Translations under genes and position numbers: made by a program
Part shown: positions 560 through 62,626 of the stretch, one piece after another
How the letters are laid out: the number at the start of each line of letters is the position of its first letter
Position numbering within the stretch: position 1 is the stretch's first letter
Origin: a candidate division WOR-3 bacterium
GTDB taxonomy: Bacteria > Hydrothermota > Tepidihabitantia > Tepidihabitantales > Tepidihabitantaceae
Length of the DNA stretch: 64,000 nt
Assembly (NCBI GenBank): GCA_965649295.1
Contig: CBFGKH010000001.1
Coordinates: 96,001 to 160,000 of the forward strand
Direction of reading: 5' to 3'
The notes under the pieces: model-generated
Seen by the model: the letters and a program-made list of their open reading frames with translations, nothing else
What the model was told of the DNA's origin: nothing
Databases searched by the model: none

Positions 560-849
560 GCAAGATGGTTCGGCTATCATCAGCCAGACTGTAACTGAGT
601 CCAGCCAACCCATCAATCTGGATCAACCAACTCCTTTCCCAGGGCTCGACTTCGAACCTGAGCCGGCACCTTCCTATCGAGTGGCGTGGTCGCTGGTTGC
701 CGCACCGACAGCAACCATGCCTACCCCGCCGACGCTTAGCAAGTGATGCTTTATCTGAGAGTACGCAGGGCTTGCGCCCGCTGGGCGCCACCACTAGACT
801 ATTCAGTAGTCGAGATACCCTAGCCAGACTGCCACAGGAGGCATTCTTG

Positions 850-3800: not shown

Positions 3801-4308
3801 TTACATCACTTCCGACTCAGGCATGAGCGAAAGCATGAAACACCGCGCCCTGACCGCTGAGATTGGCCTGCCTCAGTCGAATCGGACTTACAACTGGTCG
3901 GTTGCCATCGCGACTGGGCCACTGACCATTCCCCCCGGCTCGACCCAACGCGTTGCCTTCGCTTTTGTCGGGGCGGCCGGCTCGACTGCCTTCGAACAAA
4001 CATGTGCTGCAATTCAGGACTGGTATGATGCCAATGTGGGGATCAAGCAGACACCTACCCTTAGCCATCGCCAATCTGAAATCACGGTTCTACCCAACCC
4101 AACCCGTGGCACTCTACGGATCAACAGCTCGCCCCATATGCACCTGTGCGCTCTGACGCTCTATGATTGCTCCGGTAATCTTGTCCGCAAGCTGGACACG
4201 AGAAGCCTAATGATCGATCTTTCCGACTTACCAACTGGTGCCTACGTCCTCAAGCTCGTGACTGACACTGGTCAGACAAGCACTGTCCGAATAGCCGTTT
4301 TGCGCTAG
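850..4308 (+). CDS. Secreted C25 (gingipain-like) cysteine peptidase with propeptide, Ig-like domains and T9SS-type C-terminal domain
   Basis: Signal peptide MKLARLLLLPAFALA; YVLLAGD, PTDLYY, VGRAS, GHG and SLAC (His-Cys dyad), NSRYGW, FNLFGDPAL; C-terminal PNP...YD.SG.LV...LPTGAYVLKL. ATG 850 follows CAGGAGG. Confidence 0.88.
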   Translation: MKLARLLLLPAFALAGTLIYTAEVNPQELLFSRHGDYDLVQLANGVFVPRPGYPSLPELPLTLVVPAGALVTKVSAEPLAIIELGNYRIMPSQHAHPISKPPTHYFTPPIPAIYRTDRPFPGTYCRDFTTGLASGFQLVSISLCPLQYQPASGRLSLANKLLVTISYADNVSRTTVLTPSQRDRALMSLIPLVANSRDLNRFAPQTLECDLPEINYLIITNNALAPHWQEFADYRSARGLRAEIRTVEWAQRSYPGRDAQECVRNLIIDYYQHRGLSYVLLAGDNAQVRCRKIRLNVEDEQGDIPTDLYYGGLDYSWDSNNNNIFGEMADSIDLYADVLVGRASADNVRQIENFIRKVAIYENSPAPDYHRRSLLPSGWLWRSIGYHGSFLNDSIADLTPAPWVDRKLVNPRNSAVVAESLDHGFVIFDPAGHGNASGVYDEDGTPIYLASNAASQRNYRRYAIMTSLACDPGDFEAEDCCAEAALNCDTAGCIGVMMNSRYGWGTPPSMGPSEKLCVRFWDYYLVRNHTVIGAAHNRSREVYAGQARTSSLWRWCVTEFNLFGDPALDIWTQAPTPLTIEAPVSVPTGAQTVVATVRANGSPLADAIVTAWKANEVFATANTNAAGQATLPVHAVTTGSILVTARKHDYLAAQASVTVTPGAPEPLIRYSCSSIDDTGAQNPNGILEPDETARLTLTIRNAGTGAATNTRIVLRPLTAGVTAPESVAWYGTVLAGDSAAASNLLITCGGNVLPGAIVQLLALVSSDQRYDEFIFGIEIGYPGRVAADIDTGDCALTVTARGAIGFDRTGTITGLGFRYPKNDTSTLNTASFAISNGPNYVVDRFYSQNDRLDTDWTLADSVRQRYPLWSADEMLTAAFNDAGHVDPRSVTVGQRALAARAVPGAVVLVYDITNQNGTTLENAYAGILADFDVDARDRFHDDAWVRHDLSAVMMRNILRPDRYCGIKLLTPVAPFHGTCLDNSVYITSDSGMSESMKHRALTAEIGLPQSNRTYNWSVAIATGPLTIPPGSTQRVAFAFVGAAGSTAFEQTCAAIQDWYDANVGIKQTPTLSHRQSEITVLPNPTRGTLRINSSPHMHLCALTLYDCSGNLVRKLDTRSLMIDLSDLPTGAYVLKLVTDTGQTSTVRIAVLR

Positions 4309-16049: not shown

Positions 16050-19000
16050 TTACTCGATTGCCAGCTTCTGAGTCGAACTGAACCGGTCGGCACTGAACCG
16101 AACCAGATAGACACCGGCTGACAGGCCGCCCAGGTCCAGTCTCGCTGTCCCGGTACGGCCGACAGCCAGCGACTGCTTGACCAACAACCGGCCCGCAACA
16201 TCATGGACAGCAACGTTCAGGACCCCAGCGCTAGGCAGTGAATACTGAACAATCGCAGCCTGACGGTTCAGGGGACTCGGCCCAATCCGAGCAAACAGAA
16301 CCCCAGCCGGTGCTAGCTTTCCAGCGACACCACCACCCTTCGGAACAGAAGCCATCAACGACGATACTGGTCGGACATAGCGCCAGAACTCAGTGGTCTT
16401 GTTGCCTTTTAGGGCGAAGAACACAGAGTCAGCCCAGGCAACAATGTCACCACCAGACTTGACCTTCTTCTTACGTCCGCCAGTTCCAACTTGTGGCATC
16501 GTCTCTAGTGGCGTCCAGCTATCTCCATTAGCGTGATAGCGCCAGAACTCCTGGGTATTGGCTCCCTTCAAGGCGTAGATGCCGCCTGGGCCCCAGGCAC
16601 CGCAGCTGCCGTCTCCGGGTTTGGAGCGCCGACCGGTTATCGGGCTAGTAAGCGGCATACCCCGCAATGCAGTTACGCTCCAGCCAAGGGTAACGTCGTA
16701 AGCGTAAAGTTCGCCAAACTTCGCCCGGTGGGCGTAGATTGTCCGGTCGTTGTCATAGACAAGGAACGACCCCTTGTCCCACTTCGCGTCGGTTCCGCCC
16801 GGTGCCGACGGTAGCACCTGCCACTGACCAGAAACCGTGTTGTAACGGTAGAACTCGTTGCGACCACCCTTGAGTAGATAGACGTAACTCGAATCACCCT
16901 GAGCAACATAGACCATGTCGGTGCCGCCCTTGATACGTTGGCGGCGTGGTCCGGCCGGCACTGTCTCCAGCGGGGTCCATGTGTTACTCCCGATATCGAA
17001 CTTGTAGAACTCCAGGGTATTGTTTCCCTTCACGGCATAGATTGTCCCGTTGCCGTCGCTGCAACCGACGCCACCCTTGCCGGGAAGCTTACTTCCGGTT
17101 GGAACCGGCATGCCCCGCAGGTCATGCCAGGTGTCAGCCAACGGATCATATGAGTAGAAGTCCCGGGTCTTGTTGCCCTTGGCCGCGTAGATGATACCAT
17201 TGTCAATTGCGAGCCAGCCGCCTTCTTTCACCGGCCGTACCGAAGGCAAGAGCCGCACTTCTCGCGCCCGACTCCAGCCTGTCGGCCATGGCTGCTGCTG
17301 GGGCGGTGCGTAGATCCGGAAGGATTCGGTTAGCGTGTCGTTCTCGCGATTGCCGTCGCCAACCATAAACGTCGAACAGCGCACAGCATAGTTACCGACC
17401 GGATGCGGCCCAGGCCAGGGAGCAAACTGCAGCTGACGCGGTGCCCCCTGCGGCAGGTTGATGACCGTAGCCGTGTCAGTATAGACAAGCCCGGCACCTT
17501 CGTCGCGAATGCCCACCCAGACACGGAACGTGGCAGGCAGTTGGCCGTAGTTCTGGACCGCTACTGTCGGCACAATCGTCGCGGTCGAGTCAACGCTGTC
17601 AGTCGGAGCAACGATTGCCACAACACCAACGTCGAGCACTGACGGCGGAATTACCCGTGTCGAGCCATAGACGGTGTCGTTCTGTCGATGGGTGTCGCCT
17701 GGCAGCGTCGTGAATGCCCACAACTGATGGATACCCTGATTGCGCGCGGTCCAAGCTGAATCGAATCGCACCTGCAGACTTTCACCGGCATTGATGCTCA
17801 CCTGTCTGGTCAGAACGAAGTTCATTGGGTTGTCCTGAATCACGAATGTCAGGTTACAGACTTCATTCGTAGTCCCATAGTTTCGCACCTTGACCTCTGG
17901 TCGCACCTGGGTGAACTCGCGAATTGACTCGCGCGGCGCGACAATCTCGAATGCGCCGACGTCAATGAAGTCAGGCGGCCGCACTGTGAAGGTCCCTCGT
18001 GCCGTATCATTGCCCGGATGCGGGTCCTCTGGCATTATCGTGAAGGCAGCACAGCTGTAGTCGCCAGCTGGGCTAGCAGTGAAGCGCCTTGTGAAGTTCA
18101 CTACCAGACTGTCGCCCGGCGGAACGACAACGCCGGTGTGGGTCGTATCATAGACGATACTACCACCCGAGTTGCGAATCTGGAACCGGACGTTGCAAGT
18201 TCCACCCAACGTCCCGTAGTCCCGTATCCGTACTGCTGGCTGCACCTGAGTGTCCTGAACAATAACGCCGGTCGGTGCAAGAACCTGCGTAGCACCGACA
18301 TCGTAGAGGTTAACACGGGTCGAGCCCCAGGCCGTGTCGTTACCCGGCACCTGGTCGCCGACGAGTTCGGTCCAGCAAGCAGTTGTGAACGAACCGGAAT
18401 CGGTCGTCCAGCTCGCGAAAGTCACATTGGTCTCACTTCGCGCCCCAAGCGTTGCCACCACGGTGCTATCCCGATACACTGTCGCTGCACCACGTCGGAT
18501 GAGAAACTTCACCATCAAATTTGAGGTCTGCTGGTTGCCGTGGTTGCGAACTGTTGCGGTCGGCGTCACAACTACGCCATAACCAACATTGCTGCCTGGC
18601 TGAAGGATGGCCGTTGCACCGGCATCGGTGTATCGGACATAGAACGGCGTACCGCTCAACGTGTCGTTGGTCGGGTCAAGATCGAGCTGGAAGTTACGGA
18701 CTGAACACCGCGGCGTGTAGGTTGTGTTCAGCGGCCCGGGCTGAGCAATCCAGGTTGGGAAAACAAGCAACGATTCACGGCCCCGCAAAATCACGATCGA
18801 ATCAATGGTATGACTGTACACAAGCTGCCCGTTCTGGTCACGGAGAGTGAAAGTCACGCGCGCCGTATCACGAGCATAGGTACTGAAAGACCGCAGAATT
18901 GCCCTCGGGGTAATGGCTGTGCCCGAATCATAGACTGCCAAGACTGGCTCCACGATTGAGTCGATCCCCAGGTTGTGGGTCGCAAAGCCTTCCCGCACCT

Positions 19001-20570
19001 TGGCCCGAATCAGCATATCCTCGGTCTCAACCGAACGTTGTGGTGCCCAGTCACCGGTCCATTCCCAGCCTTGGCGCGAGAAAGGACTGGTTCGATCCAC
19101 CCCGATGCTGGGTGATGACCCGAAGGTCTTGTACCCAACGTAGAATGCACCTGACTGGATGCTGATCGAATCAAGACTGATGTCCAGTGCCTTCCAGCCG
19201 GTACCTGGGTCTGGAATCCAGTAGATACTGTCCAGAACCGGACCTGGCCGGTTGTTATTGTCACCATAGATGAAGACGTTAACCGGCGCGACGCTGCCGA
19301 AATAGAAGTACAGGCTTTCTATCCATACCGGGTAACGTGGCGGTTCGAACTTCATCGCATACCCATGGGTATCAGCAAGAGATATCGAACCACTGATTTG
19401 TCGGTCGAAACGGAGAATCGTTGGCAGCGCGTAATCGACCACCATAATCTCTACCAGCACAGAGTCGTTGGCACGATACTGGTCACCCGGGTAGTCAACC
19501 TTGACTTTCAGGGTGAATGTTCCCGTATCGCCGAGCTGCGGTGTCCAGGTGCCGAAGTCAACATAGTAGTTCTCGCCGACGGTCAACGACGGAATCGTCG
19601 TTGAGTTGAACCAGACAGTCGTACCAGTCTGCTTCTTAATCTCGCCGGTCACTTCTACCTGCCCGACCGGATCAGTGCTGGCATTCTTCACCCAAAGCCA
19701 GATTGGCCGAGGCAGCCCACCAAACTGATAGGTCATGAAAAAGCCACCCGAGTTCCAGGACATCGCGTTGCGAACCATCACATCAGTGAACGAGTAAGTC
19801 CGTGTCTGGGGCGGGATGAACCGAACCGCCAGTCCGGCATGAGGAGCATTCATCGCCTGCCCTGGATTCGACCCGTAAAAGTAACTCAGCCCAACCAAAC
19901 CGGTCACATTCTCGATGCCGATTGTCCCGTTATTACCCCAGCCATTGCGCGGCGTGCCGCTCTGTTCCTTGTATTGAAAAGTTATGGTGCTGTCCGGCTT
20001 GGATAGGATAATCTGAAAGGTGTTGTTGCCACCCGCGCTCCAAAACGGAACACTCTCACACTGCATTACGAAAGTGTCGCGGGCCGGGTTAGTCCATATC
20101 CAGCACCCCTTGTTGCCATAAAGACCGGTGAAGTCGAGGTCACAGAGCAAGGCCGCGATCATGTCATTGGGGCGCCGACTGTCAGGGACGTTAGGGAAAG
20201 GATGAGATTCGTTGTATTGATCCTCGAAAGCGATATAGCCGTTCGAGCCGATATAGAACTGACTGTAGCGCAACCAGTAGAACGGGAACTCAAACCCAAG
20301 CGAGAATGGTCCAACGACGTTGTCGTCCACCAACCCGGTTACGCGCTGCGCACCGGGCAGGAGACGGATATCAATCCAGTTGAATTCCGGCCGGCCTGGC
20401 ACTCCGGGTGTCGTGTCGCTATCAACATAGGTGTAGCCCCACGGATCAGGTCCGCCGTCAGTGATAGGGAAAATCTCTGGCTTTGTCGGTTGAAACCCAG
20501 TCTCGATTGATGCGGCTGCCAGACTCGCTGTCACCAGCAGGCAGCCCAGGAAAAGGACTCTGCGGTACAC
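16050..20570 (-). CDS. Large secreted protein: N-terminal GGPD domain, about 6 CARDB/Ig-like repeats, Kelch-like beta-propeller, T9SS-type C-terminal domain
   Basis: Signal peptide; repeats DVGxxxIxAP...VxNYG...D....NDT; repeats IYAxKGNxTxEFxxY; LSAGVYLVRF...KLAIE; GTG 20570 after GGGAGG. Confidence 0.8.
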   Translation of the reverse strand: MYRRVLFLGCLLVTASLAAASIETGFQPTKPEIFPITDGGPDPWGYTYVDSDTTPGVPGRPEFNWIDIRLLPGAQRVTGLVDDNVVGPFSLGFEFPFYWLRYSQFYIGSNGYIAFEDQYNESHPFPNVPDSRRPNDMIAALLCDLDFTGLYGNKGCWIWTNPARDTFVMQCESVPFWSAGGNNTFQIILSKPDSTITFQYKEQSGTPRNGWGNNGTIGIENVTGLVGLSYFYGSNPGQAMNAPHAGLAVRFIPPQTRTYSFTDVMVRNAMSWNSGGFFMTYQFGGLPRPIWLWVKNASTDPVGQVEVTGEIKKQTGTTVWFNSTTIPSLTVGENYYVDFGTWTPQLGDTGTFTLKVKVDYPGDQYRANDSVLVEIMVVDYALPTILRFDRQISGSISLADTHGYAMKFEPPRYPVWIESLYFYFGSVAPVNVFIYGDNNNRPGPVLDSIYWIPDPGTGWKALDISLDSISIQSGAFYVGYKTFGSSPSIGVDRTSPFSRQGWEWTGDWAPQRSVETEDMLIRAKVREGFATHNLGIDSIVEPVLAVYDSGTAITPRAILRSFSTYARDTARVTFTLRDQNGQLVYSHTIDSIVILRGRESLLVFPTWIAQPGPLNTTYTPRCSVRNFQLDLDPTNDTLSGTPFYVRYTDAGATAILQPGSNVGYGVVVTPTATVRNHGNQQTSNLMVKFLIRRGAATVYRDSTVVATLGARSETNVTFASWTTDSGSFTTACWTELVGDQVPGNDTAWGSTRVNLYDVGATQVLAPTGVIVQDTQVQPAVRIRDYGTLGGTCNVRFQIRNSGGSIVYDTTHTGVVVPPGDSLVVNFTRRFTASPAGDYSCAAFTIMPEDPHPGNDTARGTFTVRPPDFIDVGAFEIVAPRESIREFTQVRPEVKVRNYGTTNEVCNLTFVIQDNPMNFVLTRQVSINAGESLQVRFDSAWTARNQGIHQLWAFTTLPGDTHRQNDTVYGSTRVIPPSVLDVGVVAIVAPTDSVDSTATIVPTVAVQNYGQLPATFRVWVGIRDEGAGLVYTDTATVINLPQGAPRQLQFAPWPGPHPVGNYAVRCSTFMVGDGNRENDTLTESFRIYAPPQQQPWPTGWSRAREVRLLPSVRPVKEGGWLAIDNGIIYAAKGNKTRDFYSYDPLADTWHDLRGMPVPTGSKLPGKGGVGCSDGNGTIYAVKGNNTLEFYKFDIGSNTWTPLETVPAGPRRQRIKGGTDMVYVAQGDSSYVYLLKGGRNEFYRYNTVSGQWQVLPSAPGGTDAKWDKGSFLVYDNDRTIYAHRAKFGELYAYDVTLGWSVTALRGMPLTSPITGRRSKPGDGSCGAWGPGGIYALKGANTQEFWRYHANGDSWTPLETMPQVGTGGRKKKVKSGGDIVAWADSVFFALKGNKTTEFWRYVRPVSSLMASVPKGGGVAGKLAPAGVLFARIGPSPLNRQAAIVQYSLPSAGVLNVAVHDVAGRLLVKQSLAVGRTGTARLDLGGLSAGVYLVRFSADRFSSTQKLAIE

Positions 20571-20778
20571 GTTACCTCCCTCAACTAACACTTAGTCGCT
20601 CACTAACCTCGGCTACGGGTGCCACTGCACCCGCTACTGACCGTCTGCGTCTCATCAGCCTGCCAGTAAGGTGCCACCCGCCCCCGCAGCTTGAATAATT
20701 CTACCAGCAATGTCCCAATTGTCAACAATGCCAAACGACATACCTATCGTTAGTTATCGCGACCGAACCGAGATTAGT

Positions 20779-24040: not shown

Positions 24041-24402
24041 ACAAGTAACGATGGGACAAACAGTTAGGCCTTCGCTTCGATTCTCGCCCGCCCACCCCCT
24101 GGGCTGTCCCGGGAGTAGTCTCCTTGTCTGCGAGCGATACCGCTTGCGACAATACCTTGACTACTGCCCGCCGATAAGCTCGTAACGCTCTTTGGAGTTG
24201 AATCCGCAAGACCGTCGCCCATGCAGTGAGCAGAGGTATTCCCGGTCAGCTACGCCATATCCTCTCCAGTTGACTTGTAGCCATTGCTAGGTAACTGGCT
24301 TCGTAACCTCCTATCGCCCACGCTGCCAGGTAGATTTCGATCGCTGTCCTGGTCCAGGTTTAGGAGAAAGCCCTTGCCCGTATTCTGACAGAGCCTCTGT
24401 AG
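24041..24402 (+). repeat. Dispersed element copy B: 27-bp head, CCCGGG box, degenerate 12-bp tandem units
   Basis: Head ACAAG-N17-GTTAG at 24041-24067; CCCCTGGG/CCCGGG at 24096-24113; units such as ccgcttgcgaca, aagctcgtaacg, ctctttggagtt, tcctctccagtt, acgctgccaggt. Confidence 0.6.
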
Positions 24403-27400
24403 CTAGCGAGCTACGACTATCTTCTTTACCGTTCGATCGCTGCTAGCGGCTGAGCCGCGCAGGAAATAGACCCCAGGGCTGAAACTGCTCAAATCATTCC
24501 TGCCCGGCTGCACTTCCAGAATCTTCCTGCCTGATGCATCGAGCAATATGGCATCAGCCTCCAAGTCGGCAGTGACGGCCTGCCAGTCAATGTACCCGCG
24601 CACCAACGTCGCTGTCGGCAGAAGCTCACGGACAATGGGCAGTGACCGTTCGGCAACCGCCACCGCTGGTGGTCCGCCGCCAGTCACCCGCACGTCATCA
24701 ATGTAGAATCCTTCACCGACCGTGTCTCGGTCGCTACGAAAGACTAGTTGCACTTGAATCGTCTCCCCCAACCCCAGCCACGACAGGTCATAGCGCTCCT
24801 CTGCCCAGCCACTCTGGATACCAAGGACCCCTTCTCCCAGAGCCCCGCCCGTCCCGACAAAATCGAGTGTGTCAGCCCGACCAGAATGAAGCACGATTGT
24901 ATAGATGCCATCTACTCCGTAGTTCGGCACTGAAAACCACCGCCAGTATGAGAGCGAGCAGTTCTGGTTCACGATGAGCGGCACCGAGGTCAGCGCTGCG
25001 TTCATATTGTTAGCATACTGCCGGGTAGCCTCACTGCCGCAGTACCACGACCAGCCCCCCGAATGGGCACGGTAATTAGAGTGATGCCACATGTCACCCT
25101 GGCCGCCATGAGTCCAGAGACTCGTACCCTGCTCCATATCGTCAAAGAACCCGCTCGGCCCAACTAGCACCGGCAATCGGTACTCATCAACCGTCGTATC
25201 CGCAGCGACATGCAGTTCGAGATTGGCAAGATACGAAGCTGGACAATCAGGCAGCGCCCGGAGCGAAATGCTCTCTGGGCTCGTACTGGTTGTGCGCGGG
25301 CCAATCTCGCCGAACCAGAGTGTCTCACCACCGACCTGAACCAAGCTGTCCACGCCCACTGCCCATGCCCGGACGTTATGAGCAATGCCGTTGCCCCGGT
25401 TACGCAGTTGAACTCGCAGATGACTTGTTCTCCCGGGATGAAGGGGTGCCACAAGCCAGTGCCGCTCTGGTCCCAGTATGCCACCCCTAACCAGTAGCGG
25501 TACGGAAAAGACCTGGCTGGCGCTAGCAGTCTGCGCTGAAACTTCCAGTCGCACCAGCTCGCCATCAGCAAGGCACCAGTCCAGGACAAGCCTAAATGCA
25601 CCGGCGACAAGAACCGAATCACCCGGCCCCAGCCCAGGATGGGCTGCCACCGAATCAAGCAATGTTACACCGGCTGAACCCACCCGCAGCCTCAACTCGA
25701 CTGGACCCGAGGCCAGTCCTCCCTGATTCGTCAGCCAAAGCCCCAGTTCGAGCGTCTCGCCAGGATTGGCAAGGCCATCGCCATTGCCCAAGGCATCATC
25801 AACAGCCCAGCCGCCAAAACCCAGCCGCTGGGCTGCTCGGCAATCAATCTGCCGCACAACTGGCCGACAGTTGTCAGCGGTGACGGTTAGAGTGAACTCA
25901 CCATCACTCACCGGCGTAGCCGTGAGCCAGACCTGACCACTGGGGTCAGTGCGGCCCCGGCTGTAGGACTCACCCGGCTTCAACAGGCAGACCAGCGCGT
26001 TTTCAACCGGCCGACCTTCGTGCTCGACGCTGATAAGATAGCGACCATGCCTACGCGGAATCAGGTCTGGCCCCCGCACCAGCAGCGTCTCCGGCTGAGC
26101 TGACCAGACGAGTAGTTCAGGATCGCCCATCAGATTGATACAATACTGGTGCCAGCGATAGACATTTCGGTCGTGTGAAAACGGCACGTAGTATGCCTTG
26201 GCCCGGTTTAGGGCGTCGCCAAGCCGACGATAGCCCTCGCGCGTGACAGCGTGCCAGAACCGGTTGTCGAACTTATCGGAATACCCGAAATCAGGATTGC
26301 CTGGCGAACCCCAGCCATAGGATGAGTTGCCGATAGTTGCCACTGTGCCGCCGTTTGGGTTCGTGACAAACGCCTCGCCGATACTCTGGTAGTCGAAGGC
26401 CGTGGTCCAGCAACCGATCGAATATAGCACACCCCAGCCGCTGTTGGTAATCGTGTCGGCATCGGCAGTGACTAGCCGATTACCGCCACCGCCACAACTC
26501 ATCACGTCAATCCAGCCGTGGCCGTCGTGGTTGAGAAAGTTCTGGTTCTGCCTGATTGCAGCCATCACCGCCTCGCGGGTCTCATTACCGAGGCTCTGAT
26601 ACAGCTTGGTCACCTCGTAGCCAGGCCCAAACGAGCGCTGTTCTAGCCGGTTCTTGTGCACGCCCTGATCAGTGTATGGATTCTGCCAGAGAATCTCAGC
26701 AAAGAAGAGCGCTCGCTGTTGATAACCGCTGGTCTGACACTGTTCGTAATCTAGCACCTTGCGCACAAACGCCTGGGCCTGAATCGCATTGTTCACCGGC
26801 GCCCGGCCTACCGCAATGTCCGCATAGAGATCAACCCCATCGTCAGTCTCGCCAAACACGCTGTTACCGTTCGCGTCCCAATCGCCCTGCAGGTCGGCAA
26901 AGTAGAGGTCGCACGGCAACGAGTCTTCCCGTTGCATCGCGCCCCACTCGCAGCTCATCGCGAACGCCTTACGGAAAGGAATCACGCCGACATCTCCACC
27001 CAGTAGCACATAACGCACGCCCGAATCCGGCAAAGTCTTGAGATAGTTGCGCAACCTCTCAGCATCGTCTCGGCCCGGGTAATTAGCTGTCACCCAGCCG
27101 ATGTTGCGCACTGCTGCCCGCACCCCTTTCTGGGTCTTCCATTGGGCCAGCCGTTCGAAGACTGAATCGAGTCCGGCACCGGTCACAATAACATAGTCAA
27201 GCTCGGCCGTGGGCAGCACCGGTCGCTGCGACAGCCGCTCGTATGTCACCTCCACCTTGATGCGCGGACAGTACTCCAGTCGCTGCCTCGCGCCAACAAA
27301 TCTCACTGGATAGAGTAGCAACTGCACGAGCGTGCTATCCGGGCTCACGCTTGTCCCGGTCCAGCGACCTGGCAGCGAAGGATGAGTAGTCGAATAGCAG

Positions 27401-27744
27401 GCAGCATTGGGAGAGGTGAACCAGTCGCGCAGCCGCTGATCGGCCAGCACGTGCTGCTCCTGCGCCGGATAGGGCGTGACCGCGGCTGCTAGCTCTTGCC
27501 AGTCGGCCGCATCAATCAAAACACGACTCGCCCGACATTCCCCCGGCAGGGCCAGAACCGCCGGTACCACTGGCAGTTGCGGCGCCCCCGGGTCATCAGT
27601 AACTTCCTGGTCAACCCCCAGCACGAGCACAAAACGCCCAGCCTGTTCCAGTTTGAAGCGGCTCGATTCGAACTCAAACTCTCGCACAAGCTGGGCCCCG
27701 GCTGCCAAACCAAAGAACGTTGCCAGCAGCACCACTCGTTTCAT
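24403..27744 (-). CDS. Second secreted C25 (gingipain-like) peptidase with Ig, MAM/immune-inhibitor-like and T9SS-type C-terminal domains
   Basis: YVLLGGD, PCDLYF, VGRAP, NHDGHG, SIGC, NSSYGWG, NLMGDPEL; HSG..SWYCG, G.GFYIDDV; SPGVYFL. Confidence 0.88.
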   Translation of the reverse strand: MKRVVLLATFFGLAAGAQLVREFEFESSRFKLEQAGRFVLVLGVDQEVTDDPGAPQLPVVPAVLALPGECRASRVLIDAADWQELAAAVTPYPAQEQHVLADQRLRDWFTSPNAACYSTTHPSLPGRWTGTSVSPDSTLVQLLLYPVRFVGARQRLEYCPRIKVEVTYERLSQRPVLPTAELDYVIVTGAGLDSVFERLAQWKTQKGVRAAVRNIGWVTANYPGRDDAERLRNYLKTLPDSGVRYVLLGGDVGVIPFRKAFAMSCEWGAMQREDSLPCDLYFADLQGDWDANGNSVFGETDDGVDLYADIAVGRAPVNNAIQAQAFVRKVLDYEQCQTSGYQQRALFFAEILWQNPYTDQGVHKNRLEQRSFGPGYEVTKLYQSLGNETREAVMAAIRQNQNFLNHDGHGWIDVMSCGGGGNRLVTADADTITNSGWGVLYSIGCWTTAFDYQSIGEAFVTNPNGGTVATIGNSSYGWGSPGNPDFGYSDKFDNRFWHAVTREGYRRLGDALNRAKAYYVPFSHDRNVYRWHQYCINLMGDPELLVWSAQPETLLVRGPDLIPRRHGRYLISVEHEGRPVENALVCLLKPGESYSRGRTDPSGQVWLTATPVSDGEFTLTVTADNCRPVVRQIDCRAAQRLGFGGWAVDDALGNGDGLANPGETLELGLWLTNQGGLASGPVELRLRVGSAGVTLLDSVAAHPGLGPGDSVLVAGAFRLVLDWCLADGELVRLEVSAQTASASQVFSVPLLVRGGILGPERHWLVAPLHPGRTSHLRVQLRNRGNGIAHNVRAWAVGVDSLVQVGGETLWFGEIGPRTTSTSPESISLRALPDCPASYLANLELHVAADTTVDEYRLPVLVGPSGFFDDMEQGTSLWTHGGQGDMWHHSNYRAHSGGWSWYCGSEATRQYANNMNAALTSVPLIVNQNCSLSYWRWFSVPNYGVDGIYTIVLHSGRADTLDFVGTGGALGEGVLGIQSGWAEERYDLSWLGLGETIQVQLVFRSDRDTVGEGFYIDDVRVTGGGPPAVAVAERSLPIVRELLPTATLVRGYIDWQAVTADLEADAILLDASGRKILEVQPGRNDLSSFSPGVYFLRGSAASSDRTVKKIVVAR

Positions 27745-32750: not shown

Positions 32751-33881
32751 ATGGTATCGCGCACCTATCTGAGCCAGCTCCGCAAATCATTCCCTAAGCT
32801 GGCCCAAAAGCACGGCACACCGCTCTTTGTCATATCCCGTACCCTGCTGCTTGCCCAGGTCGCCCGCTTTCGCAAGCTGCTACCGCGGGTCGAGCCGTTC
32901 TATGCGGTCAAGGCCAATCCTAATCCAAACGTGCTCAAGCTGCTGGCCGGTGCTGGCCTTGGGTTTGATGTTGCCTCAGTGCCGGAAATCGAATGGGCGC
33001 TGGCAGCCGGCGCTACGCCGGACCGACTCATCTTCGCCAACACGATGAAGAGCGACGCCGCTATCGAGTTTGCTGCCAAGCAACGGGTCAACCTGATGAC
33101 GTTCGACTCCGAGTATGAGCTCCAGAAGATTGCCCGTCATGCACCCAAGGCCCGAGTGCTGGTGCGCATCAAGGTGCCCAATGTTGGCTCGATTGTTGAG
33201 CTCTCGCTCAAGTTTGGCGCTGAGCCGGCTGACGCGGTCCCGCTTTTACTCAAGGCCAAACGACTCGGTCTGCAACCGGTCGGCGTCTGTTTCCACGTCG
33301 GCTCCCAGTGCACCCATGGCTCCAATTACCTTGAAGCCTTCGAGTTGACCAAGATAATCGTCAACGACGCAGCCCGCAAGGGTCTGCCCATTGAACTGAT
33401 TGACATTGGTGGTGGTTTTCCCATTCGCCATTTTGACAGTGATGACGACTGGTTTGCTGCCATGGCCCCGGCCATGCGCATGGAGATGGACCGACTGTTT
33501 GAGCCGAATCTCCGCATCATCGCTGAGCCGGGCCGGGCCCTAGTCGGCCCCTCGTCATTCCTGCTGCTGAGCGTCATCGGCAAATCAATCCGTAACAACA
33601 AGCACTGGTACTTCCTCGACGACGGCGTCTATGGCGCGCTCTCTGGCACTATCTTTGACCACTGCAAGTACCAGTTCAATGTGCTCAAGCGCGGCCCCAC
33701 CCAGTTGAGCACCCTTGCCGGCCCGACCTGCGATTCGCTCGACATCATCTCCAGCGACGAGGAACTGCCCGAACTTGAACCCGGTGACCTGGTCTATGCC
33801 CAGAATATCGGTGCCTACTCTATTGCCCATGCCACGAGTTTCAACGGCATACCACCAGCCAAAGCAATTCTTGTTCCTTGA
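32751..33881 (+). CDS. Fold-type III PLP ornithine/lysine decarboxylase
   Basis: YAVKAN (PLP lysine), FDVAS, KFGA, FHVGSQ, DIGGGF, EPGR, GPTCDS.D, GAY. Confidence 0.9.
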   Translation: MVSRTYLSQLRKSFPKLAQKHGTPLFVISRTLLLAQVARFRKLLPRVEPFYAVKANPNPNVLKLLAGAGLGFDVASVPEIEWALAAGATPDRLIFANTMKSDAAIEFAAKQRVNLMTFDSEYELQKIARHAPKARVLVRIKVPNVGSIVELSLKFGAEPADAVPLLLKAKRLGLQPVGVCFHVGSQCTHGSNYLEAFELTKIIVNDAARKGLPIELIDIGGGFPIRHFDSDDDWFAAMAPAMRMEMDRLFEPNLRIIAEPGRALVGPSSFLLLSVIGKSIRNNKHWYFLDDGVYGALSGTIFDHCKYQFNVLKRGPTQLSTLAGPTCDSLDIISSDEELPELEPGDLVYAQNIGAYSIAHATSFNGIPPAKAILVP

Positions 33882-33890
33882 AGGAGCAAC

Positions 33891-35099
33891 ATGAGCAAAC
33901 GTCGTCTATCGAGTCAAGGCGCCGCCAGCAAGCCGGCGGTTTCTCCGCGCATGCGCCGTGACCTCTCTGAGGTTCCGGAGTGGCTGCGCGAACGCGAGTG
34001 TCCCCACAAGCAGCAATACCTGAGCGGCCAGCGCATCCTGCCCAAAGGCATCACCGGCAAGGAGAGCATTAGCCGGCTGATGGACGATGCCTTCCTTGCC
34101 TACAATGCTGCCCGGCTGCGTCAGGGCTGCCGGCTCTTCGTCGAGAAGATGCTCGCCCCGGACACAACCGTCGGCATGAGCCTGGCCGGTGCCCTTACCC
34201 CGGCTGGCCTCGGCTGCTCCTGCATCGTGCCGCTAATCAAGGCCGGCTTTGTTGACTGGATTGTCGCCACTGGCGCCAACATGTACCACGACCTCCACTT
34301 CGCCTTCAACCTGCCACTTCACGTCGGCTCCCACATTGTTGACGACACCGACCTGCGCCAGAACGACGTCGTCCGCATCTACGACATCTTCCTCGGCTAT
34401 ACCGACTGCTTGATGGAGACCGACAAGATACTGCGCACAATCCTGGTCCAGCCCGAGTTTCAGAAAGAGATGGGCACCGCCGAGTTCTACTATCTCCTCG
34501 GTCGCTACGCTGCCGAATGGGAACGTAAGAGCGGCAACCGTGACGTCTCGGTACTCGCTGCCGCCTACCGCTGCGGCGTTCCAATTCACACGAGCTCGCC
34601 AGGCGATTCTACCATCGGCATGAACATCGCCGGCCTCGAACTGAAGGGCTTGAAGCTCCGCATCAACCCTTCGATTGACGTCAATGAGACCACCTCCTAC
34701 GTGCTGGCTGCTAAACGCTCTGGTGGCAAACACGCGGTTGTACTGATTGGCGGCGGCAGCCCCAAGAACTTCATGCTCCAGACCGAACCCCAGATTCAGG
34801 AAGTCCTAATGATAAAGGAATACGGCCAGGACTATTTCTTCCAGGTTACTGATGCTCGGCCCGATACCGGCGGTCTGTCCGGTGCCACCCCACACGAAGC
34901 CGTAAGCTGGGGCAAGGTTGATCCAAACCAGCTGCCCGATGCCATTGTCTGCTACGCCGACTCAACTATCGTCCTACCGATTCTGACGCACTACGCCCTT
35001 GCCAATCACAAGAAGCGGAAGCTGCGCCGGCTCTACGACCAGCGGCCCAAACTGATGGAGAACCTTCGGCAGGAGTTCTTCGCCCACACTCACTTCTAG
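33891..35099 (+). CDS. Deoxyhypusine synthase-like protein (probable homospermidine synthase, SpeY-like)
   Basis: [39 protein letters not shown] (catalytic Lys), DST..LP. Confidence 0.88.
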
Positions 35100-41512: not shown

Positions 41513-42736
41513 TTATCCATCTTGCCGCTTGCCCCCTGCCTCTTGGCCCTTGACTTTTGGCTCTTGGCTCGTGTCCTCTGCCTCTCCTGCTTCTCCTCTT
41601 GCCGGCGGAACCGGCCGCCTGTCGCGTATCTCCTCGAACTTCGCCACCAGCGCCGCTGCGACCCGCTGCACCAGCTCAGGCCGACCGGTTGTCCGGCCAA
41701 GCTCAGCCAGAGTCTGCTCCATCGTCGCACTCTCCGGGTCAGAGTCAACCAAGAGCCACGCTAGCGTCCTCGCCAGCCAGTCCCGCGCCGGCTCATCAGC
41801 ACTCTCAACCCCCACCGCCTCACCAGCCTGCCGTAGCGCAAGCTGGAATAGATACCGCTTTCGGCCGTATTCCTCCATTGCCGCCTTCACCTCCTTTCGC
41901 TCCTGGTCTCGCCGCAATGCGGCCGCGCTCCGCAGCCCATTCCCGGCAATCCGAATCGGCGGCCCTGACCGCAGCTCCTCCACCAGCCCAGCCGCCTGTA
42001 GGTCAGCATACACCTCTTCAGCCAGCTTCCGTGCCAGTTCCAGCTCCTTCCTACCTGCAAACCCAACCCGCACCGCTGCCCGCTCCAGTGCTCTCCAGCG
42101 CCGCGCCGAACCCGGCCTGAGCCGCACCGCCAGCACACCTACCGCCTGCCGTAGCAGAAACAACCGGTCTGCCGGCGAAAGCGATGCCCAATACGGGGCC
42201 AGCACCCTTTTCAACTCCTGCTCCAACTCATAAGCAATCAACCGACTGTTCGCCATCCGTCGCACCCGGGCCAGCCGCTGCTCTGGCAGCTCATACTGCA
42301 ACCACACCCGTCGCCCTGGCGGTAACTCATAATCCGGCACACGCAACCGACCATCGTTTCGAAACAGAAGCGCCGTCTTACGGTCATACTTCAGCACTGC
42401 TGCCCGCACCGGCTCTGGCAATCCGGCAACCAGCGCCTGCACTTCCTCCTGAGCCTGCTCCTGTCCAGCCACTGGCCGACGGCAGTAATCATTAAGAATA
42501 TCCAGAATCGCCCCAACATCAGTCCGACACGCCCGCAGGAAATCAAGCACGAGCCCGAGCGAAGGATACCGGACGCGCCCGCTCTCCAGCCTCGCCACCA
42601 CATTCCACGCACCACGGCCCTGTCGGCCCATCAGCATTGCAACCTGCGCTTGCGTCAGCCCAGCAGCCAGCCGCACCTGCCGCAGCCTCGCTGCCAACTC
42701 GGCCGGAAACTCAAACATCACTCGCGCACGCGCCAC
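41513..42736 (-). CDS. XRE-family HTH protein with a long uncharacterised helical C-terminal region
   Basis: LAARLRQVRLAAGLTQAQVA...VARLESG...PSL..VLDFL.AC; GTG lies 5 nt after TATAAT. Confidence 0.75.
   Translation of the reverse strand: MARARVMFEFPAELAARLRQVRLAAGLTQAQVAMLMGRQGRGAWNVVARLESGRVRYPSLGLVLDFLRACRTDVGAILDILNDYCRRPVAGQEQAQEEVQALVAGLPEPVRAAVLKYDRKTALLFRNDGRLRVPDYELPPGRRVWLQYELPEQRLARVRRMANSRLIAYELEQELKRVLAPYWASLSPADRLFLLRQAVGVLAVRLRPGSARRWRALERAAVRVGFAGRKELELARKLAEEVYADLQAAGLVEELRSGPPIRIAGNGLRSAAALRRDQERKEVKAAMEEYGRKRYLFQLALRQAGEAVGVESADEPARDWLARTLAWLLVDSDPESATMEQTLAELGRTTGRPELVQRVAAALVAKFEEIRDRRPVPPARGEAGEAEDTSQEPKVKGQEAGGKRQDG
41521..41576. repeat. Eight 7-bp tandem units inside the XRE gene 3' end
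   Basis: cttgccg|cttgccc|cctgcct|cttggcc|cttgact|tttggct|cttggct|cgtgtcc. Confidence 0.75.
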
Positions 42737-42783
42737 AGACTATTATACTAAATCTTATAGCCACCGTTCAACTTTCTCTGCGT

Positions 42784-43111
42784 CTAACCAACAGCAAACA
42801 AATCAGTTAGCCAATTACAGCCGTTGAGATATCCCTAGTCCCCCGGGTCGCTCTCTAGGCTCTTTGTCTCGGCCTCTGCCACGAACCTCCACCAACCCTC
42901 TGCAGGACTCATCCCCAATCCCTGATCTGGCCTACTCTCCGGGGCTCTCTCCAGACTAACTCCCAAACTCCTATCCACAGTCCCTGCCACTGACTGGTCC
43001 CAAGCCCTATGCCGGAACTTCCAACCGGCCCTACCCCCGACCTCCGCCAAGCTCCCTGCCCGAGCCTTGTCCCATCTCAAAACCAATCTCAACCGAGAAC
43101 CCATTCCCGCC
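42784..43111 (+). repeat. Dispersed element copy A: 27-bp head, CCCGGG box, about 23 degenerate 12-bp units
   Basis: Head CTAAC-N17-GTTAG at 42784-42810; TCCCTAGTCCCCCGGG ends at 42847; units gcctctgccacg, ccctctgcagga, ctactctccggg, gctctctccaga, ctcctatccaca, gtccctgccact, ctccctgcccga. Confidence 0.75.
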
Positions 43112-43146
43112 CTTCTCCCATCCCGTCACCAGCACCACCTCTACCC

Positions 43147-56853: not shown

Positions 56854-58476
56854 CTAGTTCAGCTTCACTGCTAGCACAACCGGCTTTGTGACTGTCTCAG
56901 TCCTACCGTCCCCACGCGCGGCCTTAGCATTGACCAAGTAGATACCAGCTGGCTTGGGCCGACCCAGCCGGTCGGTCCCATCCCAACGCAGTTCATAGAA
57001 CCCGCCTGACCCATTATCAAGCAGCTCGCGCACCAGCCGACCCTCCCGATCAAATATGTCAACGTCAATTCGATAGCCACTGGTCGGCGAATTAACGTAG
57101 ATCTTCGCAGTCTGACCAAGCTCGCGCACAAACGACTGCGGCACAATCGAATCGATGACCAGACCCAGTGTCTCCTGTGGATACGAAGCAGCCACATCAA
57201 CCACGTCCGACAGAAAACGTGGCATCAACTGATAACCACTCGTATAAGGCTCGCTACTGTCATACTGGCCGACAATACCGGTCACCCGCACCCGCCTTCC
57301 CCTGATGCCAAGCCAAGACGGCGGCACGAATGCGGTATTGTTGATGCGCAGGGCAATCGCCGCTGAGCCATTCTTTACCGTCATATTGTAGCCCGGCCCA
57401 GACTGATACGGCGCCTGCACGACATCAGCCGTCACCCAGACAAGGTCACTCTCCATCCGCTCGGTCAGACTCACATTGAACGGCAGCTCGCGCGGTGCGA
57501 TGATATTCCTGGTCGTATCAACCAGCACCATTGCGCCGTTGGCCAGTTCGGTCAGACCGTTATACTCAGTGACCGTGCCGATGACCTCCCAGTAGGCACC
57601 AAGCGAGTCAAGCCACCCGACCTGACCGGAATCATAGCTGCCACCGTAAACGTTCACCCCAGCAGTTGAGTCCTGCAGGTACCAGCTCTTCGCTCCGCTG
57701 GTGAAAACATAGGCTGGCCCGCTAACCCAGCCACGCACCCGTACCATCTGGCCGATGCGGGCCGGTGTTACGCCGTCCGGTCCAGCCGCCTGCACCGATT
57801 CAATCGGCAGAATCGGCATGTCCATCGCCGTGCGCGAAAAATCAGACCGGTAGCGCGGCAGCATCTGGTATCCGGTCAGCGGCCGGGTTGTGTCTGAGCA
57901 ATACTGGCTCTTGATTGCGGTCAGCGTGAAGGTGTCGTTCAGCAGCACTAAGCCAGCCAGTCGCGTGTCGGCGTCAATCCGCATCTGCGTCGTCCCTGTC
58001 TGGTCCTGGATGTTGTAGTTAGTGTTCGCCGCAAGAATCAAGGCCGTCGTTGTCACGCCGACAAACCTCACTAGCTCGCCCTCATACTGCTCGCCATTTG
58101 CGTCCGCACAGGTCAGGATGCGCGGCTCGGGCAGGGGCCGGTCGCTGGCCAGACGGGTGATAACGGCATTATCAACCTCGGTCTTGCCCCGATACCACTG
58201 AACCCGGCCTGTAACCAGTACGCTGTCGCCAAGATTCGCATCCTGCATCGTGAAGCTGAACACGTTCACCCCGGCCGAGGTGTCCTGGACATAGATGTCA
58301 GTGTAACGCTGATCAAAGAGACTGTCCGGTGCGGTCACGATGCCGGTGATGGTGACTGTCTGTCCGCGCCGGTCTGGCTTACCGTCGCCGTTGGCATCAA
58401 CGATAACCGCCCGAATCGGCTCCTGTGCCAGCACCACACCGGCCAGCAGTAATGTCAGGAATACCCATCGCTTCAT
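56854..58476 (-). CDS. Secreted protein with about 4 OB-fold-like repeats and a C-terminal FlgD-Ig/T9SS-like domain
   Basis: V.V.G.V.....YxQD.TAGVNV, V.EY.G.TE, E.ELV, G...QY......GYQ..PR...D (duplicated); IFD.EGRLV, WDG.D..G...PAG.Y. Confidence 0.7.
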   Translation of the reverse strand: MKRWVFLTLLLAGVVLAQEPIRAVIVDANGDGKPDRRGQTVTITGIVTAPDSLFDQRYTDIYVQDTSAGVNVFSFTMQDANLGDSVLVTGRVQWYRGKTEVDNAVITRLASDRPLPEPRILTCADANGEQYEGELVRFVGVTTTALILAANTNYNIQDQTGTTQMRIDADTRLAGLVLLNDTFTLTAIKSQYCSDTTRPLTGYQMLPRYRSDFSRTAMDMPILPIESVQAAGPDGVTPARIGQMVRVRGWVSGPAYVFTSGAKSWYLQDSTAGVNVYGGSYDSGQVGWLDSLGAYWEVIGTVTEYNGLTELANGAMVLVDTTRNIIAPRELPFNVSLTERMESDLVWVTADVVQAPYQSGPGYNMTVKNGSAAIALRINNTAFVPPSWLGIRGRRVRVTGIVGQYDSSEPYTSGYQLMPRFLSDVVDVAASYPQETLGLVIDSIVPQSFVRELGQTAKIYVNSPTSGYRIDVDIFDREGRLVRELLDNGSGGFYELRWDGTDRLGRPKPAGIYLVNAKAARGDGRTETVTKPVVLAVKLN

Positions 58477-60359: not shown

Positions 60360-60420
60360 TATGCCTCCTCGAATCAGGCTAATCCTCAATACCAGTCTGT
60401 CAATAGCAGGGAACAACCAA

Positions 60421-60742
60421 AGCAGCAGAGCAAACCCCGCTACTAGCCGCGTACACAGGCCCTCAGACCAGGTTCTGTCTAGGAGTGTCGCTGGCCTGGG
60501 ACCGAGCCTATCTGGAGACCCCCCTTCCCACGCTACTCAGAGTAGCTCATCAATCTCATCTCGGAGCCTAATCGGCAGCCCTGACCGAAACCTGGTACAG
60601 AACAGGCTTGCAGACCGAACGACAAGGAACCCTGGAAAGCTTTCCCCTAGCATCTTGGCAAGGCCACTAGCGAACAGTCCCGGGGACAAGGGAGGGGTAG
60701 CAAGCCAAGAGTCAGCTATCAGATTGTTGCAGCGCGACTTAA
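60421..60742 (-). repeat. Dispersed element copy C: 27-bp head, CCCGGG box, about 22 degenerate 12-bp units
   Basis: Minus-strand head TTAAG-N17-GATAG (60742-60716); TCCCTTGTCCCCGGG ends at 60679; units ggccttgccaag, agctttccaggg, cggtctgcaagc, gggctgccgatt, aggctccgagat, gggtctccagat. Confidence 0.7.
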
Positions 60743-60988
60743 GACCCATAAGCCAGAACTGGCCCCGCACCTTGAAAGGGGTGCAACGAGCGATTCTCAC
60801 CCGAGACAAGAATCCTCATTCACTTGGGCCTTATGGTGCTCTGAGCTAGAGCCGGTCGCGGTTGGCTGTTTGTTCAAGACTAACCACAGCCATGCCGTTT
60901 GCGCCCTGATGGAAAAACCGCGGCGATTGGGTCGCACCGAGACCGCAGTTGCTTGACTGGTTCACTAGAAGCCCTAGAATCCACTTTC

Positions 60989-62068: not shown

Positions 62069-62626
62069 ATGATAACACCCAACGAATTCAAGTCCGGTAC
62101 CCTCATCCGTTACAACGGCGAGATGTACGAGGTTATGACCTACTCGCGTACTCGCACTGCGCAGCGCCGGGCCCGGGTGCTGGCCCGGATTCGCAACCTG
62201 AAGACCGGAGCGATTATCGAGGAGTCGTTCGAGTCGGAGATGAAACTCGAAGAACTCGAGGTGGAACGTCACCGCTGTCAGTACATGTATCAGGACGACC
62301 TCGGCTATCACTTCATGGACACCGGCAGCTATGAGCAGATAACCCTCTCCCCTGAAGTCCTCGGCGACAAACGCCTCTATCTCACTGAGGGTCTCGAACT
62401 GGACATAGACTATATTGACGGCCAGCCGCTTGTCGTCGAGCCGCCGATGTTCGTGGTACTCGAAGTCGTTGATACCGAACCGAACTTTCGCGGTGACACT
62501 GCCACTGGCGGCGGCAAGCCGGCCCGACTGCAGACCGGCCTGGTCGTGACGGTTCCCTTCTTCATCAAGAACGGTGACCGGGTGCGCATTGACACCCGCA
62601 CCAACACCTACGTCGAGCGGGCCTAG
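62069..62626 (+). CDS. efp: Elongation factor P with non-canonical loop
   Basis: RNLKTG, FMD..SYEQ, GDTATGG.KPA.L.TG..V.VP.FI..GD...IDTR...Y.ER; follows the M24 peptidase gene. Confidence 0.93.
   Translation: MITPNEFKSGTLIRYNGEMYEVMTYSRTRTAQRRARVLARIRNLKTGAIIEESFESEMKLEELEVERHRCQYMYQDDLGYHFMDTGSYEQITLSPEVLGDKRLYLTEGLELDIDYIDGQPLVVEPPMFVVLEVVDTEPNFRGDTATGGGKPARLQTGLVVTVPFFIKNGDRVRIDTRTNTYVERA

Follow-up and report, generated by a model that had tools for sequence, protein, structure and literature searches.

Phase-locked 12-bp arrays and genes for SIRV2-type capsid-like proteins on the chromosomes of one bacterial order

The window, a 64,000-nucleotide stretch of DNA from a candidate division WOR-3 bacterium, contains three copies of a non-coding element that occurs about 80 times in the 2.28-Mb genome, each time without a gene and over roughly 400 bases. 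The elements are arrays of 12-bp units, and they are found in the same bacteria as a family of small proteins which, by the agreement of sequence profiles and predicted structures, have the fold of SIRV2-type major capsid proteins; within the phylum, both the proteins and the arrays are restricted to one order. It is likely that the arrays are bound by members of this capsid-like family. We lean slightly towards a more specific account, in which each copy would be a nucleation-and-wrapping track for the bacterium's own Adnaviria-capsid-like proteins, making short nucleoprotein nodes about every 26 kb. An earlier note on this DNA had raised several options for the arrays, of which a phased protein-loading array is the best supported, with a candidate protein now named.

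Anatomy and register of the arrays

The window lies on contig C1 of a genome (G000) assembled in 19 contigs and rated 100% complete. Three of its regions had been described as sharing one architecture, and their coordinates and geometry were borne out when the sequence was re-read: copies A and B run on the forward strand from 42784 and 24041, respectively, and copy C runs on the reverse strand from 60742 to 60421. In copy A, a CTAAC-N17-GTTAG dyad (42784..42810, +), which matches 10/10 consensus positions and has an offset of -54 from the anchor, is followed by a C/G-tract box (42826..42849, +) that makes up units -1 and 0, the anchor unit starting at 42838, and by 23 phase-locked 12-bp units (42838..43113, +), 16 of which have a pyrimidine pair at positions 2-3. 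Further out, an imperfect dyad (42740..42760) is centred 88 bp before the anchor, where operators of the TGCA class are centred (-87/-88), and it is a putative site of the adjacent helix-turn-helix (HTH) protein. Copy B, which lies between ftcD and a C25 peptidase gene, has a long head geometry, with an ACAAG-N17-GTTAG dyad (24041..24067, +) at offset -65 and no recognisable operator in the head; its C/G box (24094..24117, +; anchor 24106) leads into 23 phase-locked 12-bp units (24106..24381, +). Copy C, between a ybhB-like gene and pepP, is composed of a TGCACC-N8-GGTGC operator (60766..60785, -) common to 18 other copies, including one before the HTH paralogue on contig C4, a TTAAG-N17-GATAG dyad (60716..60742, -; offset -55), a C/G box (60676..60699, -; anchor 60687) and 23 phase-locked 12-bp units (60412..60687, -).

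The distance from dyad to box also proved as described, the box ending 37 nt after the dyad in copies A and C and copy B having two boxes that end at 36 and 46 nt. The 27-bp dyad, which had been taken for the end of the element, is not its end, as a palindrome that differs by class is found about 46 bp beyond it. The loose 12-bp pattern of the units stood, with its signature corrected to S-Y-Y-(T) in the phase of the box. Copy B indeed lacks any open reading frame of 60 aa or more, its longest having 57 aa, and the view of the three regions as intergenic and otherwise unexplained has to be qualified for a 200-aa open frame over copy C and a 119-aa frame over the tail of copy A, neither of which has a match in Pfam.

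Among the genes of the genome are many for C25 peptidases that carry type IX sorting tails. A 76-gene cluster encodes large secreted proteins, their sorting tails being of the type IX or FlgD-Ig kind, and has members in the window at 697-4308, 16050-20591, 24403-27744 and 56854-58476. At 32751-35099 and 62069-62626 the window also has genes of the deoxyhypusine synthase family and for an ornithine/arginine decarboxylase side by side, and EF-P is encoded elsewhere in it; this is unusual in bacteria and could reflect homospermidine synthesis.

The 12-bp period is real in all three copies when their autocorrelation is compared with that of 1000 shuffles. Copy A has z values of 3.8 at lag 12 and 4.6 at lag 24, with negative values at lags 3, 9 and 15, and copy B has values of 3.2, 2.2 and 3.9 at lags 12, 24 and 36; the period is weakest in copy C, with 2.6 at lag 12 and 3.2 at lag 13. 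A genome-wide scan, in which lags 12, 24 and 36 were scored over other multiples of 3, returned only family members among its top 20 windows, copy A being fifth. Matrix scans confirmed that the family is dispersed, the box matrix finding 57 sites in the genome and none when the DNA was reversed or complemented. About 10 further copies came from a unit matrix, which is not specific alone, reversed and complemented controls scoring up to 56, and was used only for extending the set. The typical copy has a head of about 100 bp, with a palindrome (in 42/66 copies), a CTAWC-N17-GWTAG dyad and a C/G box, and then about 23 gap-free 12-bp units.

Aligned on the box without gaps, 66/66 copies keep the phase in both halves of the array, as scored with a unit matrix that was trained on 57 of them. 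In these copies, the pyrimidine pair is found at unit positions 2-3 in about 80-90% of units, and the array signal stops sharply after unit 22. No fewer than 1183 of 1185 units are distinct, no unit position exceeds 0.71 bits, and the identity between same-numbered units of different copies is 0.326 versus a phase-matched background of 0.321. Because identity is at background and the phase is unbroken, array length and register have been kept while sequence was lost, in agreement with the earlier note, which had held that phase rather than sequence is conserved. Among younger copies in a related genus, the length is a multiple of 12 for 35 of the 51 gaps in the alignments, and the signature positions rarely show transversions; these counts come from 38 non-independent pairs, and periodic sequence itself favours gaps that are multiples of 12. 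The same unit diversity, together with the lack of an Rfam hit, upholds the earlier statement that the arrays are not CRISPR, and TIGR arrays are rejected likewise, as no conserved repeats alternate with variable spacers.

A second class of arrays (class II), with at least nine members, has a different box, which is a doubled G/C palindrome, and reversed polarity, the pyrimidine marks lying on the opposite strand relative to the head. In G000 they are located at C1:373238, C2:64779, C2:103061, C3:170015, C4:7778, C4:122372, C5:24849, C7:55943 and C11:14415, and two of them precede stand-alone capsid-like genes; the matrix of the main class (class I) is unsuited to scoring them. None of 40 relatives has the exact G000 box, their boxes being different, and no close strain was found in metagenome contigs searched by protein and by box pattern.

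Some arrays of genus g9 (L017, L054, L058) are near-perfect 12-bp tandem repeats with up to about 40 units, which is possibly the birth state of the degenerate tracks. In another genome, G004 (L264-L271), scaffold gaps coincide with arrays and the copies are 76-90% alike, so young array expansions may be under-assembled in other genomes. Two features of G000 lie beside array heads: a short lysine-rich ORF near position 30130 of contig C13, whose doubled motif we take to recall SWIB/MDM2-like proteins, and repeated text in the translation at the start of contig C10 (1-330), which suggests a CRISPR-like repeat.

In the heads, the CTAWC-N17-GWTAG dyad was confirmed, with 17 as its best spacer and positions at -54/-55 or -65 from the anchor, and the centre of the outer palindrome moves with it (-87 or -98). 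This palindrome defines three operator classes, TGCA (19 copies), GTAC (17) and TATA (6), and the remaining 24 of the 66 copies, A and B among them, have no operator of these classes. Genome-wide, 19/20, 17/17 and 6/7 matches to the operator patterns, which were themselves derived from heads, fall inside heads, and the seventh match of the last class heads another array. Each class includes one HTH-linked copy, before the C4 paralogue (TGCA), the C9 paralogue (GTAC) or the C8 paralogue (TATA). Other genomes have their own variants of the palindrome upstream of the HTH gene, which recur at 23 sites in G046 (control 2), 14 in G006 (control 1) and 6 in G001 (control 2); the enrichment is absent in G047 and G002, and the pattern ATGATA-N6-TATCAT, whose spacer is probably wrong, has no match in 5 genomes. 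When 16 operator sites were examined in related genera, a C-run box was present 75-82 bp on in 12 and a clear long array in only 6; in genus g9, 14/14 operator sites lead to arrays, at least 8 of which are HTH-linked. Similarity between operators follows that between HTH domains more closely than that between tails (partial r 0.17 versus 0.10; 0.10 versus 0.02 for distant pairs), a modest effect among kin that are not independent, with a mid-head control at 0.06 and -0.02.

The HTH fusion and the stand-alone capsid-like proteins

Copy A is arranged head-to-head with the gene of a 401-aa XRE-HTH protein (41513..42718, -; Pfam HTH_31; alternative GTG start at 42736), which is the candidate loader of the arrays. 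A sigma-70-like promoter, TTGAAC-N18-TATAAT (42742..42771, -), points into this gene and overlaps the operator-like dyad; it has 10/12 consensus bases, and 0.2 such sites are expected in shuffles. The gene has four paralogues in G000. In four of these five genes the start is 82-118 bp from a box and the reading direction leads away from the array. The fifth (C4:146666-147370) has a proline-rich linker and no array upstream, and only its second capsid-like domain was weakly matched (E=0.003). Among HTH-fusion homologues, the top lag is 12, 24 or 36 in 60/64 upstream flanks versus 9/58 downstream flanks, and a lag z of at least 3 is reached in 53/64 versus 0/58; this comparison is based on the best-scoring 69 of about 300 matches, weighted to genus g9, and on the 64 rows that had enough flank. 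The four HTH-linked copies have genes of unrelated enzymes as neighbours, and most copies are without a partner gene.

The tail of the fusion is predicted to consist of two Adnaviria-capsid-like helical domains, at about residues 101-240 and 250-363, in an AlphaFold2 model of the 401-aa protein with a pLDDT of 85. Residues 101-234 match the profile of the stand-alone family (P=85.7, E=5.5e-6), and residues 250-363 match it more weakly (P=55.6). In VIA, the latter domain aligns to AFV1 ORF140 with Z 9.0 (rmsd 5.6, 107 aligned), a score that falls within the range of generic helical bundles. Foldseek with the whole fusion model returned HTH proteins only, and the best score for PF12193, 23.4 bits, is below the curated cut-off of 25.2. 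From the two domain matches, long forms of the protein appear to be an HTH followed by two capsid-like domains and short forms an HTH followed by one. Profiles and models thus give moderate support to a fusion tail that shares the SIRV2-type capsid fold.

A profile of the tail matched two 125-aa stand-alone genes, which belong to a family of five in G000 with 13 conserved basic positions. The sequence profile of the stand-alone proteins ranks eight Adnaviria capsid chains first (best E=9e-7). For their predicted structure, which has a pLDDT of 92.7, the top ten matches in Foldseek are Adnaviria capsids (3J9X, E=7.9e-4, TM 0.77), as are the top six in VIA (6WQ0, Z 13.3, rmsd 5.0, 120 aligned), where the next and unrelated match has 7.9. 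In a viral structure library the top three matches are again Adnaviria capsids, the second of them unnamed, and the sole matches in a phage collection are rudivirus capsids at E=0.5. Complex prediction for a stand-alone protein with the fusion tail gave a median of 0.10 versus a mark of 0.32, which speaks neither for nor against an interaction. The capsid-like genes are dispersed over bacterial contigs, with cellular genes around them; there is no array upstream of the closest stand-alone genes, and 3/5 of those in G000 are near an array. Clusters of two or three divergent capsid-like genes are found in relatives (L098, L107, L112, L113), suggesting heteromeric filaments.

Distribution in the order and spacing on the chromosome

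Stand-alone capsid-like genes are present in 43/43 sampled genomes of the order and in 0/158 others of the phylum. The HTH fusion is found in 35 of these 43 genomes and in none outside the order, and the HTH protein family occurs in 43/44 genomes of the taxonomic family. At E<=1e-15, the fusion was not detected in families f3 and f4 of the order, the first of which nevertheless has tracts. Abundant phased tracts, defined as more than 40 hits to a 14-unit pattern, occur in 15/43 genomes of the order versus 0/158, with never more than 32 hits outside; some members escape the pattern, among them G006, in which arrays are present.

Spacing was computed in G000, where 79 elements give 64 within-contig gaps with a mean of 26 kb, a smallest gap of 11.3 kb and a CV of 0.39; three of these elements were added by eye, and about seven weaker candidates, each at least 13 kb from its neighbours by coordinates, were left out. 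For random gene junctions the CV is 0.88, and 0/2000 draws were as even as observed; gaps below 10 kb number 0, versus 20 expected. The spacing is likewise even with 67 elements, and the class II arrays fill places where the main class leaves its even spacing open. Such spacing suggests a chromosome-scale job. Tail-to-tail neighbours are 21.6 kb apart (n=21) versus 30.0 kb for head-to-head neighbours (n=16; p=0.008), a difference that was noticed post hoc and hints that the elements act in a polar way. Arrays are without positional conservation between genera, and in relatives they lie upstream of 1/29 ftcD loci and 2/27 pepP loci, which makes them rare at these positions in other genera, as judged by an insensitive test in which copy C of the window itself scored 2.5 against a threshold of 3.

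A proposed loading track, its rivals and related systems

It speaks against a loading role that viral capsids of the SIRV2-type fold package whole genomes, with no need for phased signals known among them. In PFV2, a dimer and 12 bp of A-form DNA make up the asymmetric unit of a right-handed solenoid (PMC7189273), and in AFV1 and SIRV2 each dimer likewise covers 12 bp of such DNA, with 9.3 and 14.7 dimers per turn (PMC5517147). By arithmetic from the PFV2 data, a surface repeat of 12 is larger than the twist of free DNA, as a right-handed wrap requires. The 12-bp register of the arrays, the viral relatives that step 12 bp per dimer and the HTH fusions that share palindromes with the tracks together make loading the simplest account.

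In this account, the XRE-HTH fusion would bind its own palindrome, also repressing its own gene where one sits behind the head, and its capsid-like tail would seed assembly over the head and the C/G box. Stand-alone dimers would then join, one per 12 bp, guided by the recurring pyrimidine pair, which would act as a shape or bending signal and not as a base-read site. Some 23-25 dimers would make up a right-handed solenoid of roughly 1.5-2.5 turns, probably with its DNA in A-form, and the fixed array length suggests a finite particle. The resulting nodes would be evenly spaced chromosome organisers or supercoil barriers; that chromosome organisation is the job of the arrays is a proposal to which we give an even chance. 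Just as evenly balanced is the wider proposal that the whole order has domesticated the coat protein of an archaeal filamentous virus as chromatin, with sequence-specific HTH-capsid loaders placing right-handed A-form "capsid nucleosomes" of about 300 bp on polar, evenly spaced 12-bp tracks and so dividing the chromosome into domains of about 26 kb.

A rival account, which we consider unlikely, draws on the same capsid-fold and array-linkage evidence and takes the arrays for packaging-initiation sites of a domesticated filamentous particle, either GTA-like or a protective A-form coat, that would coat whole chromosome segments under stress or for transfer. The mean spacing of 26 kb is near the genome sizes of Adnaviria, such as 24 kb in BaiyanV1 (PMC13700489) and 34-35 kb in three rudivirus records, and the ECF-like sigma gene that adjoins stand-alone capsid-like genes in 18 of the 44 loci examined, and in G000 at C5:144123-144656 and C8:6467-7138, suggests a regulated programme. 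However, no conserved viral, nuclease or egress gene was found among the neighbours in these 44 loci, no close relative of the capsid-like proteins was found in viral contigs, and the sharp end at unit 22 suits a finite particle better than an open-ended filament.

Rather less probable again is that the cassettes are selfish non-autonomous elements, marked and coated for copying by the HTH-capsid protein and spaced by insertion immunity or by recombinational loss of close repeats. That cassettes have spread, as the earlier note's suggestion of a non-autonomous element implied, is supported in several ways: the ftcD-C25 junction occupied by copy B is empty in two relatives (about 85 bp versus 535 bp in G000), HTH-fusion matches reach about 25 per genome in genus g9, and the young copies of G006 are 69-88% identical, with homology that runs from the outer edge of the operator to the end of the array, so that cassettes must have been copied whole. 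The mobilising enzyme, by contrast, was not found. Y1/RAYT transposases (PF01797) are absent from 5 of 5 genomes searched, with the control matched in 6/14, G000 has no reverse transcriptase, and tyrosine recombinases (PF00589) are limited to two genes in each of 5 genomes, G000 included, which are presumably XerC/D and do not adjoin copies A-C. The flanks show neither a terminal inverted repeat nor a target duplication (longest flank repeat 5.7 versus 5.8 in shuffled pairing), and in copies this old a short target duplication could have decayed. Nor is the idea of a head like a tyrosine-recombinase or dif core supported: the dyad is internal, occurs at two offsets and has the form 5-N17-5, unlike an Xer/dif or integron att core, which measures about 28 bp, with two 11-bp arms and a 6-8-bp spacer, and sits at the boundary. 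It also weighs against selfish copying that 66/66 copies, gene-less and gene-linked, hold register and length with their sequence at background level; keeping these long after insertion needs ongoing selection on the copies.

Local transcription control, in which an operator and a spreading repressor would act on neighbouring promoters with autoregulation of the TubR-tubC type, is improbable. It fits the overlap of operator and promoter before the HTH gene, and TubR is known to bind one iteron and spread on another upstream of its gene (PMC6009700). However, the orientation of neighbours is unbiased (18/13/12/11 over the four arrangements), the neighbours are unrelated genes that differ between genera, and even spacing is not predicted by gene regulation alone.

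There is very little left to recommend the arrays as RNA, whether as Rho-loading rut sites, which pyrimidine pairs about 12 nt apart recall, or as the structured repeat RNA once suggested, or as decayed tetrapeptide-repeat genes, for which a few arrays within long open frames and one frame with fewer stops than the null (150 versus 184) might speak: with C at 0.28 and G at 0.30 the strand is not C-rich, and it has more YT than YC (654 versus 421 of 1320), the upstream gene is co-oriented in only 25/54 cases, with no strand bias, there is no Rfam match, mean folding z over 66 copies is -0.4 and -0.6, and each of the six frames has 102-190 stops in about 4700 codons. With stops in every frame, a coding role is rejected, and copy B in particular is not the remnant of a C25 C-terminus, as relatives without the array can be aligned with the C25 gene right up to its end.

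For the loading account, the closest comparison is with the nucleocapsids of Adnaviria (SIRV2, SSRV1, AFV1, SFV1, PFV2), which have the same fold as the protein partner proposed here and whose virions hold 12 bp per dimer, equal to the DNA repeat of the arrays. Further likenesses are the several paralogues per genome and the tandem two-domain forms; single-gene double capsomers, or tandem two-domain capsids, are described in some archaeal rod-shaped viruses, and there for archaeal viruses only (10.1101/2025.08.23.671958). Unlike in Adnaviria, which a 2026 paper describes as archaea-specific (PMC13700489), the genes here are on bacterial chromosomes of one order, without recognisable viral neighbours. 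They also differ in being fused to a sequence-specific HTH and in being associated with dispersed, fixed-length phased tracks instead of a whole genome.

The tubC-TubR and parC-ParR systems resemble the arrays in having a repeat track upstream of the binder gene, nucleation with spreading, and autoregulation (PMC6009700). Here, in contrast, about 80 copies are dispersed and their units share only the pyrimidine pair, the candidate binder is neither a winged-helix nor a ribbon-helix-helix protein, and there is no adjacent NTPase gene.

The matS/MatP and parS/ParB systems are dispersed protein-loading sites like the arrays, and nucleosome-positioning sequences, with a periodic dinucleotide signal of period about 10.3, are similar in that such a signal replaces a base-read motif. 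The arrays differ from all of these in their period of 12, their fixed track length and their separate operator, and the wrapper would be capsid-derived. REP/REPIN, MITE and PATE elements are likewise intergenic and multi-copy, with a palindrome at one end and empty sites in relatives. In the arrays, however, RAYT/Y1, terminal repeats and target duplications are lacking, the copies are evenly spread and not clustered, and register is kept while identity is lost. By this comparison, the system would work like an Adnaviria nucleocapsid on a centromere-like track and be a member of neither family. In a literature search of freely accessible articles and preprints, neither the element nor any bacterial protein of the SIRV2 type was found described.

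The SIRV2-type capsid fold is regarded as the hallmark of an archaea-only virus realm. Its presence as a core, multi-gene family in a bacterial order is therefore relevant to where that realm came from and to the recruitment of capsids by, or from, cells. The parts are all small, and rebuilding the system in vitro would be possible without culture of the host. The arrays also allow a test of whether a bacterial chromosome can have domain boundaries at fixed and even intervals. Should the wrapping model hold, the particle would join histones and the bacterial nucleoid proteins already known as a third kind of DNA-wrapping chromatin. Its positioning code, a pyrimidine pair in every 12 bp, would be readable, and it would have a dedicated loader and possibly contain A-form DNA in a living cell. 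A loading track for capsid-like proteins would be a new way of organising bacterial DNA.
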